Positions 39,001 to 45,000 of a DNA stretch of 64,000 nucleotides are shown here, one piece after another (position 1 is the first letter of the stretch; every line of letters begins with the position of its first letter). The stretch comes from an uncultured Spirochaetota bacterium (GTDB lineage: Bacteria; Spirochaetota; Brevinematia; Brevinematales; JAOACQ01). The DNA lies in NCBI GenBank assembly GCA_963783575.1, contig CAWAOD010000005.1, positions 256,001 through 320,000 on the forward strand, written 5' to 3'. Position numbers: made by a program.

Positions 39001-42000
39001 GCCTAAAGTAGCATTTCTTTCTTTCTCAACACATGGAAGCGCTGATTGCCCATCTGTAGAAAAAGTTAAGGAAGGTATCAGAATCCTAAAAAGCCGTAAT
39101 CCTGATTTCGCTTTTGACGGTGAAATGCAGTTTGATGCTGCTGTTGAGCCCGCGGTTGCAAAATCAAAATTCCCGGAATCTTTGGTCGCAGGAAAAGCGA
39201 ATGTAATGATATTCCCCGATTTGAATGCTGGAAATATAGCATATAAAATCACGCAAAGACTTGCAAAAGCTGAAGCTTACGGTCCTCTGTTACAGGGTGT
39301 TTCAAAGCCGGTAAATGACCTCTCAAGAGGTGCTACTCCGGATGATATTCTTGTAGTTTCTGCCATAACTATTGCGCAGTCTTATTGATTATGGAAATAT
39401 GAATATCCGGAAAGAAGATAAAAAGGTAAAAATTGAAAGATTCCTTGAAAAATATAAAAGCAACCGGAATAATTGTCTGATGTGTCCTCATGTTTGCGGA
39501 ATAGACAGGAATATGTCGAGGGGTAGGTGTAAAGAGCCTTATCTTCCAGGGGTTGCGAGTTTTAATCTCCATTATGGTGAAGAACCTCCAATATCGGGAG
39601 AAAACGGAAGCGGGACAATTTTCTTTTCAGGCTGTAATATGAACTGCATTTTTTGCCAGAATTTCCCGATCAGTCAGCTTCATCAAGCTAACAAATACTA
39701 TAATATAGAAAGTTTTGCCGATTTAATGCTCAATCTACAGTCAAGAAAAGCTCATAATATAAATTTTGTCACTCCAAGCCATTACATTTATCAGATTGTC
39801 GAATCATTGAAAATCGCAGTTGAAAAGGGATTAAATATACCAATTGTTTATAATTCCAGCGGTTATGATCTTCCCGGTATTATACGGGATCTTGACGGAA
39901 TAATTGATATATATTTACCGGATGCCAAGTATGTTTCAGAAAACATTTCTTATAAATATTCAGGAGTCAAGAATTATTTTGATATTAACAGGCAATGCCT
40001 GCTGGAAATTTACTCCCAGACCGATGGCGGCCTGGAATTGGACAATAATGGGATCGCCAAAAAGGGGATGATAATCCGGCATCTGGTTCTTCCAGATAAT
40101 ATTGAAAATTCAAAATCCGTGCTAAAATGGATCAGGAATAATCTCTCTTTTAAAGTTCATTTATCCATAATGGCTCAATATTTTCCGGCATATAAAGTTG
40201 GGCCTTCTTACTGCAGTGAAATCTACCGTAAGCTTAATCATGATGAATATGAAGAAATCTTAGATTATGCCGAAGAACTAGGTTTTGAAAATGCCTGGTT
40301 TCAGTATAGCGGCTAGCTATTAGTCACTAGTCGTTAGCATATCAATAAAATACAATTTCTTTAGAATGCTAAAAGCTAGTAACTAGAGACTAAAAGCTAT
40401 TTATGGTCCACCGACATTTGTTTCTGCAGTGTTTAATGAAGTGTTTTCTTTGCTTGCAATATTACCGTTTGATAAAATGCTATTATTAGTGTTTATAATT
40501 TTATGATATGAAATAAAATATTTTTTGGGCGATATTACAAGCGGCTCTCCGCTAAGTCCAAGAAATTTAGTAGGGATTGTTTCCATCCCAAGAAATGTCG
40601 GTTTATAAACCATAAAATGCAAATGAGGTCCGCTGGATCTGCCGGTACTTCCGCTGAAACCGATAATCTGGCCGGCTTTGACATTATCCCCGATATTAAC
40701 CATACTTCCATTTTTTAATAAATGAACATACTGCGCAAAAGTTCCGTCAATGTGATATATGGTTATGTAGTTTGCATAAGCCGCATAGCGCCTGCTAATT
40801 CCACCCTTGTTGGAATTGGTTTTAACATCAACAACCAATCCATCCCTTGCTGCACAAACCGGTGTTCCCGAATTCATGCCAAAATCAATGGAATACTTTG
40901 TCCATCCCCGGTGTGAATACCTTGTGTTATAGCCCTGATTAACCTTGTATTCCTCTCCTTCCTGATATGGAAACAAATACAGACAGCTATCATCATTGGA
41001 CACATTGGCGGGATCACCCATATAACTGTCAAACCCATATCTTAATAGGTTTGTCAAATTTGCTGATAATTTAATTGAAAAAAGAAAACAGCCTTTTTCT
41101 TCCGGTTTTAATATCGTATAAAAAGGCAGGTTCGTACTTGATCGTAGTTCGATATTAACATTTGTATATAATCTAACTCTAACCTTAATCTGGAATGGGC
41201 ACAGAGAAGCATTGTCAGCATAAAAGTCCATCTGATTTTTAATATTATTAATATAATATAATTTAATAAAATCCTGTGAATAACAAATGTAAGTTGTTAC
41301 TAATAATAAAAGGCTTATTGAAGGAACTTTGAATTTATTAATAAAATTTTTCATTGATTCATCCCTGATATTTCATTGACATCCTTTATACAATATTAAT
41401 TAAAAAATTATAACATTTGGTTTGTAAATTATAAACATAATTAAATTTTTGCATAAAATGCTAAAATTAATATCGGTGTAACTATTCTATATTATTAATT
41501 GAAAGCCAGCCATTACCTTACCGGTAAACTAACCGACTAAAGTCTGATTTATTCAGCTTATTATTTTAACATAAAAAAGCTATTAGTCAATACAACGGCT
41601 TGATTTTTTTTGATATTCTTAACTAATTGTAATATAATATATTTATAATTAAACAAGTTTAAAGTGCTAATTAACAAGTTGTTTTATGATTAGACAAAAA
41701 TAAACTTGGTTTAATATAAAAATCTCACAAATTAGATTGAAATCTAATAAATTCATAAAGGATATTTAATGAAAAAAAAATCGATAATTTTACTTTCAGG
41801 CGGTTTGGATTCAGTTGTCAATTTTAAAAATGCATATGATAAAACTACTATTTCTCTTGTACTTACATTTGACTATGGGCAGAAGGCCGTAAAAAAAGAA
41901 ATTGAGGCTTCTGCAAGAATAGCAGAAAAGTTTAATATCCCGCATGAAGTAATTTCTCTGGATTTCATAAACAATATTGACTCGGGGCTGACAAAAGGAA

Positions 42001-45000
42001 ATATACCGGAATTTGATGGGAATAAATTGAATGATATGGATTATTCATTAAAATCTGCTAAAGCGGTATGGGTTCCTAACAGAAACGGAATAATGATCAA
42101 CATAGCCGGGGCGTATGCGGATCAATATATGATTGATTATATTATCACCGGGTTTAATAAAGAAGAAGGCGCTACTTTTCCTGACAATACGCAGGAATTT
42201 ATCGATAAAATAAATGATTCCCTGATATATTCAACATTGAATCATCCTGAAGTGCTGTCTTATACTATCAAAATGGATAAGACTGAAATTATGGACTTCG
42301 GGAATTCGATAAACGCGCCGTTCGAATATGTGTGGAGCTGCTATTACGGCGGTGATAAAATGTGCGGGATATGTGAATCCTGTCAAAGATTGATAAGAGC
42401 TTTGAAAAACAATCAATTGTTTGAAGTTTTTAATACAAAAAATAAATGGGGTATCAATGAATTATCAATGGATTGATAAAGAAATAAAGTATGACGGTAC
42501 ACAGCTGACTTCGCATTTTGCTTACAAAAATTTTAAAATCCATGGCGATAGTATAATTGCTTTTGCAGGACCGGTTAATGTCAAATTGAGTGAAATGGTT
42601 GATATTGAAGACGTAATCAATAACGAACCGATTTCCTCCGATAAAATGCTAAGTTTTATTGTTGAAACATTTGATATAAACCTGAGCGGTGCAATCTGGA
42701 TGCAGAGATTCCTTACAGCTATTATTCAGGATGAAATGAATCATAGATTGAAAGGTATTTTTATTGAAAGAGACGGTGATGACCTTTATTATAATGATCG
42801 GAAATTATCGGTATCAATAGCGACTGTCAGCCCGGTTTCTGCGTTGATACACATGGCTCTTAATATAACCGGAATAGGGGCGCCGATTCCAATAGCCAGC
42901 CTTGAAGAAACACATATAAACTATATAGAACTCGCGAAGATAATTTTGAATCGGTTCTCTCAAGAATTTGAAGAAGTCGATTATGCGAGGAAAAAAGTTA
43001 ACTGGGTTAAATAATAACTTATAATCAAAGTTTAATTCCTGCACCAATACCATAAGAAAAACCGACTTTATTATTAAGAAAATACATATAACCTGTCGGT
43101 TTTATCATTATAAACTTCCATTCAATAGACAGGAATAATCCGGCATTCATCTGGTAATTTTGTACATCCGGATAATTTGATTTTAACACATCATCCGGAT
43201 ATATGATATTAACTTTAGCATCGAGACCTATTCCCAGCCTGAAATCATAATTCATATCGCCAAGCAAATAGTAACCGGTTTCAATAAACGGCGAAATAAA
43301 GTAAAGATTGTCATTTTTTAAGCTTACATAAGAAGCGCCGGAACCGGCGCCAAACCAGAAGTACCTGCCTAGGAATACATCCAGTCCGAATGCTGCCATA
43401 CTATTATCAAGGGAATAAAGCTTTGCATGAAATAGTCCGGGGCTTTTTTCTCCGGGACTATAACTTTTTGTTTCTCCGTCATGGAGATAAAAAGAGTTTT
43501 TATAAACTTCATTTGAATGATTATCAACAACCCTTAGCGTATGATTTATTCCGGCCTGGACATTGGTAAGAATTCCTCTTTCTTTGACAATTATATCATC
43601 CACATAGATTGAATATGTTTTCCATCTGTCCTTCAAGCTTAAAGTATTGATCTTCACTGATCCAACGGCATTATGGCTGATATTAATTGTTTTATACTTT
43701 TTCAGGGTTACTTCAGCTTCCAGAGCATTTGTTTTATTCCATAGACTTTTTAAAGCGACACGGTAAACCGTATCGGGAAGTACCTTCAAATTGTAAGTAA
43801 AATCAGAATTGGTTACTTTAGCCATTATTTTATCATTAATATATAGATCGTAAATCTCAGATCCTGTCCTAAAATCACCGAAAGTGATAGTTGATATATT
43901 TACTTCAATATTTAATGTGGTTTTCACAACATCGGCTATCATTTCATCGATCGTATCAAAAATATCAACACCCGTTGATGTCTTGTAACTTTTACTAAAA
44001 ACGTTCGTGAGTTTATCTCTTGTCCAGGCTTTTAAGTCAGCCGTAACAACCGGATTATTTTTGTTTCCATCGAATTTATAACTTCCATAAATAATAATAT
44101 CCGCATCTTCATTGGTAGCTATATCAATAACATTAGAAATGTCTACCGTTATATTTGTCAATATTCCCTCTTCGGGAACATTAATCGATGGAATGAATCC
44201 GATAAATGTATAAAAGGAACGAAATAAAATGGATTTTATAATTTCACTGTTAACAAAATAGTTTGTATCAACGTTATTTTCAAATGGGATAATCAGCAGT
44301 TTACCCTTTTTCGAGGGGCCTTCGGTTTTAATTGTAATTTCATCAGCAAATGCAGTGATAGAGAAAATTAATAAAAAAAATGTAATTGCATACCATTTCA
44401 TTATTTACCTCCTTTCCCCCAAAAAATGATTGTTGATATTTTGGAAATTTTCCAAAAAAAACATTTGTTATATTATATCTATTTTCAAAAAAAGTAAAGC
44501 AATTATAAATTCTTTCACATTTCCAACATAATTTAATAGGCGTGCTGCTTGGTTGAATTCAAATAATTGACAGGATTATAATTTCTGTTATAATATTTTC
44601 TGACTTAGGAGTCGGATTTATTATTGTTTGTTGATTACATTTAATTTGGAGGCAATTCCGGTATGAAGGCTACATTTAACCGGTTACCGGAGGAAAAAAA
44701 ACAGAGGATCATTGAGGCTTGTATAGACGAATTTGGTGAATATGGATATGACAAAGGATCAACTGACCGCATTATAAAAAGATGCGGAATATCCAAAGGA
44801 GGTCTATACGAATATATCAATTCAAAAGAAGATCTATATTTGTTTATTGTCGAATTTTGTTACACACAGTTATATAACTATCTCAACAATCATATGAAAA
44901 AAATCGGGATAAATTTTCCTGAAGATATTTTAGCAAGATTCCAGTTAGCTTCCAGTGTTGCAATAGATTATTACTTAAACCATCCGAAAGTTATTGAATT

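Follow-up and report, generated by a model that had tools for sequence, protein, structure and literature searches.

DUF366, a protein of predicted biotin/lipoate ligase fold encoded beside a divergent QueC, as a candidate accessory factor of preQ0 synthesis

The queC-DUF366 locus

The window, a 64,000-nucleotide stretch of contig CAWAOD010000005.1 from an uncultured bacterium of the Brevinematales (source genome G000), carries queC, the gene for 7-cyano-7-deazaguanine synthase, and a DUF366 gene on its forward strand. The features of the locus, in window coordinates, are:

41610..41638, + strand: promoter-like site, TTGATA-17 nt-TATAAT, 11/12 matches, by consensus scan only
41769..42476, + strand: queC, 235 aa; PF06508 E 1.7e-46; TIGR00364 159.9 bits vs. 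cut-off 150.3
42448..42451, + strand: GGGG, Shine-Dalgarno-like as read from the sequence, within queC, 5 nt ahead of the DUF366 ATG
42457..42476, + strand: overlap of the queC 3′ end and the DUF366 5′ end, 20 nt, same strand
42457..43014, + strand: DUF366 gene, ATG start, 185 aa; PF04017 E 1.2e-61

The open reading frames bear out the 20-nt same-strand overlap described in the initial annotation. The overlap suggests translational coupling, which is probable for the pair, and co-transcription of the two genes is predicted from their arrangement. The GGGG run is a putative ribosome-binding site of the DUF366 gene. A longer DUF366 frame, starting at a TTG at 42421, is likewise open. Among 99 adjacent pairs at other loci, the median gap between the queC stop and the first DUF366-domain codon is 3 nt; the genes overlap in 31 pairs and are separated by 0-30 nt in 57. 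A terminator scan found none between queC and the DUF366 gene and none after them. The promoter-like site lies inside a 414-nt AT-rich spacer upstream of queC and is weak evidence, since such sites are about twice as common here as in shuffled sequence. No Rfam family, and with it no preQ1 riboswitch upstream of queC, was found in 41200-43200.

The DUF366 protein matches PF04017 with 207.8 bits (cut-off 29.9), residues 1-181 of 185 covering profile positions 1-183 of 184. Its gene is present in one copy in G000, and the product of the neighbouring queC is the sole true QueC of that genome, which elsewhere encodes queD+folE2, queF, tgt and, on another contig, a queE candidate. QueC converts 7-carboxy-7-deazaguanine (CDG), the product of QueE, into 7-cyano-7-deazaguanine (preQ0), from which the tRNA bases queuosine and archaeosine derive. 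The synthesis of these bases is treated as a solved pathway. Its four steps from GTP to preQ0 have been reconstituted without a DUF366-type protein, and to our knowledge the characterised QueCs work alone and need no partner; no general step is thus left for DUF366 to fill. The earlier designation of DUF366 as a missing player is not borne out, all the more as clades exist in which it stands in other contexts.

Gene neighbourhoods of DUF366

A scan of species genomes, which returned bacterial relatives, placed queC directly upstream of DUF366 on the same strand at all 80 of the nearest loci, where 78 had been counted before. With a distant query (loci 38-46% identical), queC is directly upstream in 19 of 39 and convergent-adjacent in one more. 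Among 35 Brevinematales genomes the two genes adjoin in all 21 that have DUF366, and the other 14 are without both; the earlier figure of 20 of 34 is the same count of adjacent pairs with G000 left out. In a cyanobacterial-phylum sample of 151 genomes, queC adjoins DUF366 in 51 of the 64 DUF366-positive ones, and in 13 the two genes are on different contigs, QueC still being of the divergent type described below. The corresponding count for a Bacillota-type sample (251 genomes) is 20 of 25. The pair is flanked by ribE in Brevinematales; in Gastranaerophilales it is preceded by a gene for a HEAT protein and followed by one for a SPOR protein, and in a third clade its neighbours are secDF-recJ. 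HEAT-repeat neighbours of DUF366 occur in three contexts.

As far as gene order tells, the two genes are passed on, lost and transferred together; the lineages counted amount to few independent events, kin not being independent. The association of DUF366 with preQ0 genes goes far beyond chance and extends past a single lineage, though it is not universal. The reading of DUF366 as a QueC partner, put forward in the initial annotation, accordingly stands as a link to preQ0 genes in several phyla; it does not stand as a universal rule, the link being to a divergent QueC subfamily. A fused QueC-DUF366 protein, not found earlier among longer proteins, was found by an exhaustive search of representatives after a word-index search with the DUF366 query had given none. 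It is a single sequence of 438 aa (P0004), known as protein and present on two contigs. Four longer DUF366 forms were found in all, the others being two Clp_N fusions and one SPOR fusion. A complex prediction for QueC (A5) and DUF366 (A1) returned a score of 0.00, "no answer", and counts neither way.

The order queD-queC-DUF366-queE-folE, claimed before, was seen in three loci (L039, L135 and L148). Other que operons hold DUF366 without an adjacent queC, namely queD-DUF366-queE-folE in G208 and DUF366-queE-folE in G243 and G393. DUF366 lies between queC and queE in the full operons L039, L135, L148 and L154, and in G208, G243 and G393, where no queC stands alongside, its gene adjoins or overlaps queE, as would be expected if it acted with QueE or at the hand-off from QueE to QueC and not as a QueC subunit. 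By their stoichiometries, QueE releases ammonia and QueC consumes it; DUF366 might couple the two, or might hold the CDG that QueE releases. We regard a role with QueE as improbable, however, since most queC-DUF366 pairs (Brevinematales, Gastranaerophilales, the secDF-recJ clade) have no queE nearby, the queE candidate of G000 is on another contig, and it is the QueC subtype with which DUF366 was found to co-vary.

Some clades keep DUF366 in company other than queC. In a Thermococcales-like clade, 25 loci have 800 nt or more of upstream sequence, and in none of them is queC directly adjacent. A HAD-type phosphatase lies directly upstream of DUF366 in four of five scanned loci of this type, DUF2139 is also among the neighbours, and one locus (L115) has a divergent queC three genes upstream. 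Another clade shows the string DUF366-LPG_synthase_TM-PfkB, with no queC in the DNA examined at these loci, and in two Bacillota-type genomes with DUF366 (G332 and G400) no QueC was found. DUF366 could then be a general enzyme or ligand binder with a substrate of its own, be it a carboxylic acid other than CDG, a nucleotide, a nucleoside or a protein modified in the manner of biotin protein ligase (BPL) or lipoate protein ligase (LplA), and its adjacency to queC would reflect joint transfer or shared regulation only. These contexts, the HEAT-repeat neighbours, the Clp_N and SPOR fusions and the two genomes without a detected QueC all agree with such an enzyme. We consider it unlikely nonetheless: queC and DUF366 are perfectly co-present or co-absent in the 35 Brevinematales, DUF366 remains in que operons even where queC is elsewhere, unlinked DUF366 still co-occurs with one QueC clade, and in L115 the gene string that holds DUF366 also contains the divergent QueC.

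The partner QueC

The QueC of the window, a member of the divergent ("type II") subfamily, bears all the marks of its family (TIGR00364/PF06508, SGGxDS, VPxRN and the four-Cys zinc motif), keeping the PP-loop SGGLDS, VPNRN, K171 and the zinc cysteines C191, C199, C202 and C205. In place of the canonical signature YxQxHxxE plus YPDC, as given in PMC13329287, it has YGQKAVKKE and FPDN. Canonical QueCs (E. coli, B. subtilis; 2pg3, 3bl5; "Cluster 1" in the same paper) have SGGxDS, VPxRN, K171 and C(x)7CxxCxxC in common with the QueC of the window; in the divergent type YxQxH is replaced by YGQ(K/R)A with one extra residue before the Glu, the TY before VPxRN by VW (VWVPNRN), and ..D..GYPDC by NxEE..TFPDN.

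In a 51-row QueC tree, 29 QueCs of DUF366-bearing genomes form one split (SH-aLRT 99), which leaves out 19 QueCs of DUF366-less genomes. The Cys position of YPDC is N in 100% of these 29 vs. C in 100% of the 22 others, and the Tyr position is F in 97% vs. Y in 100%. A third subtype, with GAHxDDAAGxAYPDC, scores 192-210 bits against PF06508 and occurs in DUF366-less genomes; because the PF06508 bit score proved an imperfect proxy of subtype, the QueCs were re-classified by subtype HMM and tree. Judged from these sequences, DUF366 tracks a distinct QueC subfamily (VWVPNRN, NxEE..TFPDN, YGQxA), an association newly reported here. G000 and G035-G039 have no QueC besides the linked divergent one. 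Three genomes have DUF366 beside queE-folE and a canonical QueC elsewhere, so the divergent QueC is no absolute requirement.

The diagnostic columns of the subfamily fall in motifs that are named a catalytic signature in PMC13329287. According to the QueC model published there, the mouth of the substrate pocket is where the YxQxHxxE His and the YPDC Tyr and Cys lie; a Y131F variant is reported to keep partial activity.

Fold, conserved residues and proposed role of DUF366

AF2 run on the single DUF366 sequence gave a useless model (pLDDT 35); repeated with a 114-row alignment (A1), it reached pLDDT 97.4, against 89.9 for the model reported before. Foldseek ranks 2ddz first (TM 0.94, 40% identity), followed by BPL and LplA chains with E from 6.7e-8 to 7e-6 and probability 1.00, in agreement with the fold assigned in the initial annotation. 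VIA gives Z of 11.4-13.4 over 147-168 aligned residues for BPL, LplA and LipB. In the model, DUF366 has the fold of the BPL/LplA/LipB catalytic module.

The structural-genomics protein PH0223 of P. horikoshii (2ddz) belongs to the same family (sequence E 7.6e-34, about 40% identity) and superposes on the model with Z 28.9 and rmsd 1.2 over 183 residues. It shares all conserved DUF366 residues and has H66 where the window's protein has S; in its clade, that of the Thermococcales-like loci, the gene follows the HAD-type phosphatase and is not beside queC. The BPL catalytic domain (BirA; 3efs/2eay; 1wq7) has this fold in common with DUF366 across some 150-160 residues (Z 12-13.4, TMq up to 0.64) at 7-14% identity, but DUF366 is without the C-terminal domain and without biotin-related neighbours. 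LipB (1w66/2qhs) gives Z 12.5-12.7, and LplA with lipoyltransferase 11.4-12.4, DUF366 again lacking the accessory domain and lipoyl-related neighbours. We take the K-x-S-x-S-x-A strand of DUF366, with a His about 16 residues further on, to be LplA-like, a likeness noted outside any alignment; the Cys of LipB has no conserved counterpart. For the window's protein PF03099 gives no hit even with E allowed to reach 10, and for a relative (P0150) it gives E 0.11 and 12.8 bits, below the cut-off of 21.

Invariant in A1 are G38, D49, K116 (114 of 114 rows) and H132; nearly invariant, among others, are Y12, G14, D52, E70, Q83, R84, R105, G107, D109, S120, N136, E170 and K180. The catalytic Lys of BPL, left unmapped earlier, is aligned with K116 in two weak sequence alignments of the same register, to the Lys before VSGVL in A. 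aeolicus BPL (DUF366 profile, E 0.012) and to that before ICGIL in the source genome's own BirA (E 0.084), an assignment made from sequence and not from residue-level superposition. In the alignment to the A. aeolicus enzyme, D109 falls on the WPND Asp and N136 on the GIGIN Asn; where DUF366 has H132, BPL has Gly. LipB is an acyltransferase that uses no ATP and keeps the conserved Lys too, so this Lys alone is no evidence of carboxylate adenylation. BPLs carry a Gly/Arg-rich loop of the form GRGRxGR. No such loop is present in the DUF366 consensus (A1), whose N-terminal half reads GDSIVAFxGPCxVxxxxMVDxED, whereas the BirA of the source genome has GKGRLSRKW. Reference residues in P. horikoshii BPL, named in PDB titles, are K111 for the active-site Lys and R48 and R51 for the biotin/ATP loop. 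The earlier reading as an adenylating ligase thus holds for the fold and for an invariant Lys aligned with that of BPL; it is weakened by a Lys that is not diagnostic and by the absent loop.

HisZ, an aaRS-like regulator, offers an analogy for a DUF366 that would have lost catalysis and, as a regulatory or stabilising subunit, would respond to preQ0 or CDG by modulating QueC. The missing Gly/Arg loop points this way, as do the alignment of DUF366 to BPL by sequence in its C-terminal half only and the self-interaction of PH0223 listed in a two-hybrid table of PMC1414084. Still, about 20 polar residues of 185 are invariant or nearly so, the BPL-aligned Lys and Asp included, a pattern closer to that of an active site than to that of a sensor; we hold a purely regulatory part very unlikely. 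These roughly 20 residues are identical in every clade, whatever the gene context, which also fits the general enzyme considered above.

We lean, if only slightly, towards DUF366 being an accessory protein of preQ0 synthesis that works with the divergent QueC at the CDG-using step. Its BPL/LplA/LipB-type pocket, with the invariant K116, D109 and N136 and the family-specific D49, D52, H132 and R105, would bind the carboxylate CDG or its adenylate. DUF366 would then hand CDG to QueC or complete the pocket of a QueC in which the ATP loop, VPxRN and the zinc site are retained but the YxQxHxxE His and the YPDC Tyr and Cys are gone, for the conversion of CDG to amide to nitrile. Its own part may be catalysis (adenylation or amidation) or binding only. 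A more speculative and rather doubtful extension is a two-protein nitrile synthase: QueC would be short of pocket parts, DUF366 would provide CDG binding, perhaps adenylation or amide formation and maybe capture of the QueE ammonia, and preQ0 synthesis in many archaea, Melainabacteria, Brevinematales and anaerobic Bacillota would need five proteins, not four. A role of DUF366 as the protein that accepts CDG, in the way QatB serves QatC, was rejected, because a secondary amide cannot become a nitrile and because the genomes concerned, which also have queF and tgt, encode no other QueC.

Among the papers listed by searches of main texts only, no mention of DUF366, PF04017 or COG2029 was found. 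There is active mining of QueC, both for nitrile-forming biocatalysis and as the ancestor of anti-phage enzymes. If a large share of QueCs need a BPL-fold partner, or work much better with one, the annotation rules for preQ0 synthesis and the use of divergent QueCs in heterologous hosts would change, 2ddz, a structural-genomics orphan of 20 years, would gain a function, and deazapurine carboxylates would join the substrates of the ligase fold as a new kind. For picking test cases, VWVPNRN and NxEE..TFPDN, the markers of the QueC subtype, offer a direct handle.

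Locus and queuosine genes in the Brevinematales genome

The two genes are encoded on the same strand, and their coordinates agree with the 20-nt overlap reported by the initial annotation:

41769-42476, + strand: queC, 235 aa; PF06508 E 1.7e-46; TIGR00364 159.9 bits (cut-off 150.3)
42457-43014, + strand: DUF366 gene, 185 aa; PF04017 E 1.2e-61; no NCBIfam model

A GGGG read from the sequence lies 5 nt ahead of the DUF366 ATG. An in-frame TTG at 42421, 36 nt upstream of the ATG at 42457, is an alternative start that would lengthen the protein to 197 aa and the overlap with queC to 56 nt; relatives, like the Pfam match, start at the ATG, not at the TTG. 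Positions 41200-43200 contain no Rfam family match and no terminator-like site. Databases call the family only 'DUF366 family protein'. Methanosarcina acetivorans is among its carriers.

A search of the genome, G000, which is 4.9 Mb long in 18 contigs and about 90% complete, showed that it encodes one DUF366 and one true QueC. The queD gene is found on contig C14 beside an ORF that appears FolE2-like from its sequence alone, tgt on C10, queF on C9, and a queE candidate, 34-53% identical to queE of the Bacillota-type locus L039, on C3. With this gene set, the single QueC is taken as the housekeeping QueC of a de novo queuosine pathway. Upstream of queC, beyond a divergent M23 peptidase gene, is a further gene:

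39372-40316, + strand: radical SAM gene, weakly matching activase and AmmeMemoRadiSam-type models

This gene is not the QueE of G000, for which the candidate is the one on C3.

Fold and conserved residues of DUF366

A search of 1.84 billion representatives returned 579 DUF366 relatives at E <= 0.001, 114 of which make up alignment A1. Its invariant columns are G38, D49, K116 and H132 (numbering of the DUF366 protein), and about 25 more are conserved at >=90%; the conserved polar residues are identical across all clades sampled. The AF2 model built with A1 has a pLDDT of 97.4. Foldseek places 2ddz on top (TM 0.94), followed by chains of biotin protein ligase (BPL), LplA and LipL1 with E from 6.7e-8 to 7e-6. 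VIA-align gives Z of 28.9 for 2ddz, 12-13.4 for BPL, 12.5-12.7 for LipB and 11.4-12.4 for LplA and lipoyltransferase. Both methods bear out the BPL/LplA-type fold proposed earlier; the BPL, LipB and LplA branches cannot be distinguished.

DUF366 has a ligase-type fold in which three BPL strand residues, a Lys, an Asp and an Asn, are retained. In the profile match to the A. aeolicus BPL (E 0.012), D109 corresponds to the Asp of WPND, K116 to the Lys before VSGVL and N136 to the Asn of GIGIN, and BirA of G000 itself aligns in the identical register (E 0.084). D104 and K111, named in the titles of PDB entries for P. horikoshii BPL mutants, have the same 7-residue spacing as D109/K116. Nothing in A1 corresponds to the Gly/Arg-rich BPL loop, and the DUF366 protein of the window has no PF03099 match. 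The lack of this loop speaks for a non-catalytic regulator and the retained Lys and Asp against one; that reading of DUF366 seems very improbable.

PF04017 also gives weak matches, at 22-23 bits and over about positions 104-174 of the profile, in 319-337-aa ORFs of four Brevinematales genomes, at G010:C37:10548-10775, G016:C2:15726-16025, G024:C2:194853-195056 and G022:C2:1092765-1092986. These ORFs are probably BirA, which would fit distant homology.

DUF366 and a divergent QueC subtype

DUF366 is co-located with queC, with overlap, is present or absent together with it, and co-varies with one QueC clade. Among 35 Brevinematales genomes, DUF366 scores above the cut-off in 21, and these are also the ones with QueC, which is adjacent in every case. 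The other 14 have neither gene, and comprise 12 small genomes of one family (f2) and two that are 57% and 73% complete. Within 151 Spirochaetota genomes DUF366 occurs in nine, all of them Brevinematales. The 151 genomes of the cyanobacterial phylum contain DUF366 in 64 and QueC in 141, with the two adjacent in 51 and on separate contigs in 13 larger genomes. In the Bacillota-type phylum of L039 (251 genomes), 25 have DUF366, which is next to queC in 20. The lineages sampled represent few independent events.

The score on PF06508 separates the QueCs of these genomes: 109-203 bits in all 64 DUF366-containing cyanobacterial genomes vs. 204.6-266 in all 77 with QueC and no DUF366, and 146-161 vs. 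193-276 bits, respectively, in Spirochaetota. The score is imperfect, since a third QueC subtype in DUF366-less genomes reaches 192-210 bits; therefore, a subtype HMM was trained on DUF366-adjacent QueCs. It gives 257-266 bits for five unlinked cyanobacterial QueCs outside the training set and 96-189 bits for every fetched QueC of genomes that lack DUF366 or have it beside queE only. In a 51-row QueC tree, 29 QueCs of DUF366 genomes form one split (SH-aLRT 99), DUF366 being adjacent in 23, three genes away in one and unlinked in five. Outside it are 19 QueCs of DUF366-less genomes and those of G208, G243 and G393. The third subtype, found in DUF366-less Bacillota-type genomes (loci L188-L193; genomes G222, G377, G425, G344, G379 and G342), reads GAHxDDAAGxAYPDC, with two extra residues before YPDC.

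The divergent QueC differs from the others by VW vs. TY ahead of VPxRN, by E vs. D, T vs. G and F vs. Y, by N vs. C in (Y/F)PD(C/N), and by YGQ(K/R)A vs. YxQ(R)-H. According to the text of PMC13329287, the first and third QueC signature motifs lie at the mouth of the substrate pocket, Y35A, R99A, Y131A and Y189A are inactive, Y131F is partly active, and 91% of the QueC family is handled as one cluster; queuosine in tRNA was detected there by gel-shift northern. The text and supplement PDF of that paper do not mention DUF366; its Table S2, deposited elsewhere, lies outside this comparison. We infer that DUF366 may bind 7-carboxy-7-deazaguanine (CDG) or its adenylate, and that it could serve the divergent QueC or complete the QueC pocket.

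Three genomes bear on a different role, in the hand-off of CDG from QueE. G208 has the order queD-DUF366-queE-folE, and G243 and G393 have DUF366-queE-folE, with a canonical QueC elsewhere in all three. Set beside the 29-QueC split, such a role is judged unlikely. Two more DUF366-containing genomes, G332 and G400, yielded no QueC at E 1e-25.

Gene neighbourhoods, fusions and transfer

Loci were examined with simple ORF calls. The near-relative scan took one genome per species and kept the best 80 loci. These belong to Brevinematales, Gastranaerophilales/Melainabacteria, a single Thermoanaerobacteraceae MAG and a few MAGs with odd labels. In all 80, queC is immediately upstream of DUF366 on the same strand, against 78 of 80 in the initial annotation. 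The order queD-queC-DUF366-queE-folE, also claimed there, recurs in L039, L135 and L148, and in L154 without queD. Elsewhere, secD/secF/recJ lie upstream of the pair (nine loci), the pair stands between an upstream HEAT protein gene and a downstream SPOR protein gene in Gastranaerophilales (4/4 loci), and riboflavin synthase is downstream in Brevinematales (3/3 loci).

A distant-relative metagenome scan seeded with a Thermococcus-type DUF366 (A4) yielded 41 loci of 72-99% identity and 39 of 38-46%. Of the latter, 19 have queC directly upstream and one has it convergent-adjacent; at least five of the remaining 19 are too short upstream to judge. In the 72-99% group, 25 loci extend at least 800 nt upstream, and none of them has queC directly upstream; L115 reads QueC-DUF2139-HAD-DUF366. 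Of five loci scanned there, the Thermococcales-like L092, L093, L115, L116 and L121, four have a HAD-type phosphatase upstream and four a class I LysRS two genes downstream. The phosphatase gene (160 aa, HAD/NIF-type) overlaps the DUF366 start and is preceded in L115 and L116 by DUF2139. Another conserved context without queC is a protein of about 395 aa (weak HEAT), DUF366, LPG_synthase_TM (PF03706) and a PfkB kinase. LPG_synthase_TM is directly downstream of DUF366 in 5/5 loci scanned (L132, L138, L145, L149, L150), and PfkB is near it in seven, including L134, L158 and L163; the text of PMC13329287 gives PfkB as a neighbour of another QueC-like cluster, Cluster 4.

In a 69-sequence DUF366 tree the non-queC contexts form two well-supported clades plus L165/L167, and queC-linked sequences occupy at least three deep clades. 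That DUF366 is an enzyme of general role acting on some other substrate appears rather unlikely, and a function tied to the divergent QueC is preferred. In the DUF366 tree, Brevinematales are nested within the Gastranaerophilales/Melainabacteria clade (support 96-97), a placement that suggests transfer of the queC-DUF366 pair; they may have acquired it in this way, despite not being nested within that clade in the QueC tree.

The initial annotation found no QueC-DUF366 fusion, but one exists: P0004 (438 aa) joins QueC (17-230) to DUF366 (257-435). It is one sequence on two contigs, known from the protein alone, and its QueC part is of the divergent type. In two further fusions DUF366 is joined to Clp_N (P0053 and P0152), and in one to SPOR. 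In 5/5 cyanobacterial loci with unlinked divergent queC (L174-L178; genomes G067, G156, G097, G058 and G070), the gene after queC, on the same strand, encodes a Clp_N + AAA(+lid) protein of about 480 aa. Its Clp_N is 29% identical to that of the DUF366 fusions, a generic similarity only.

HEAT/PBS-lyase-like repeat proteins recur beside DUF366 or queC-DUF366 in several unrelated contexts, namely Gastranaerophilales, an archaeal contig, the LPG_synthase_TM clade and a Bacillota-type genome. The genes are found upstream of queC in L018, L038, L041 and L063, and at L167:195-779, L150:260-1453, L162:1137-2330 and L197:2288-3547.
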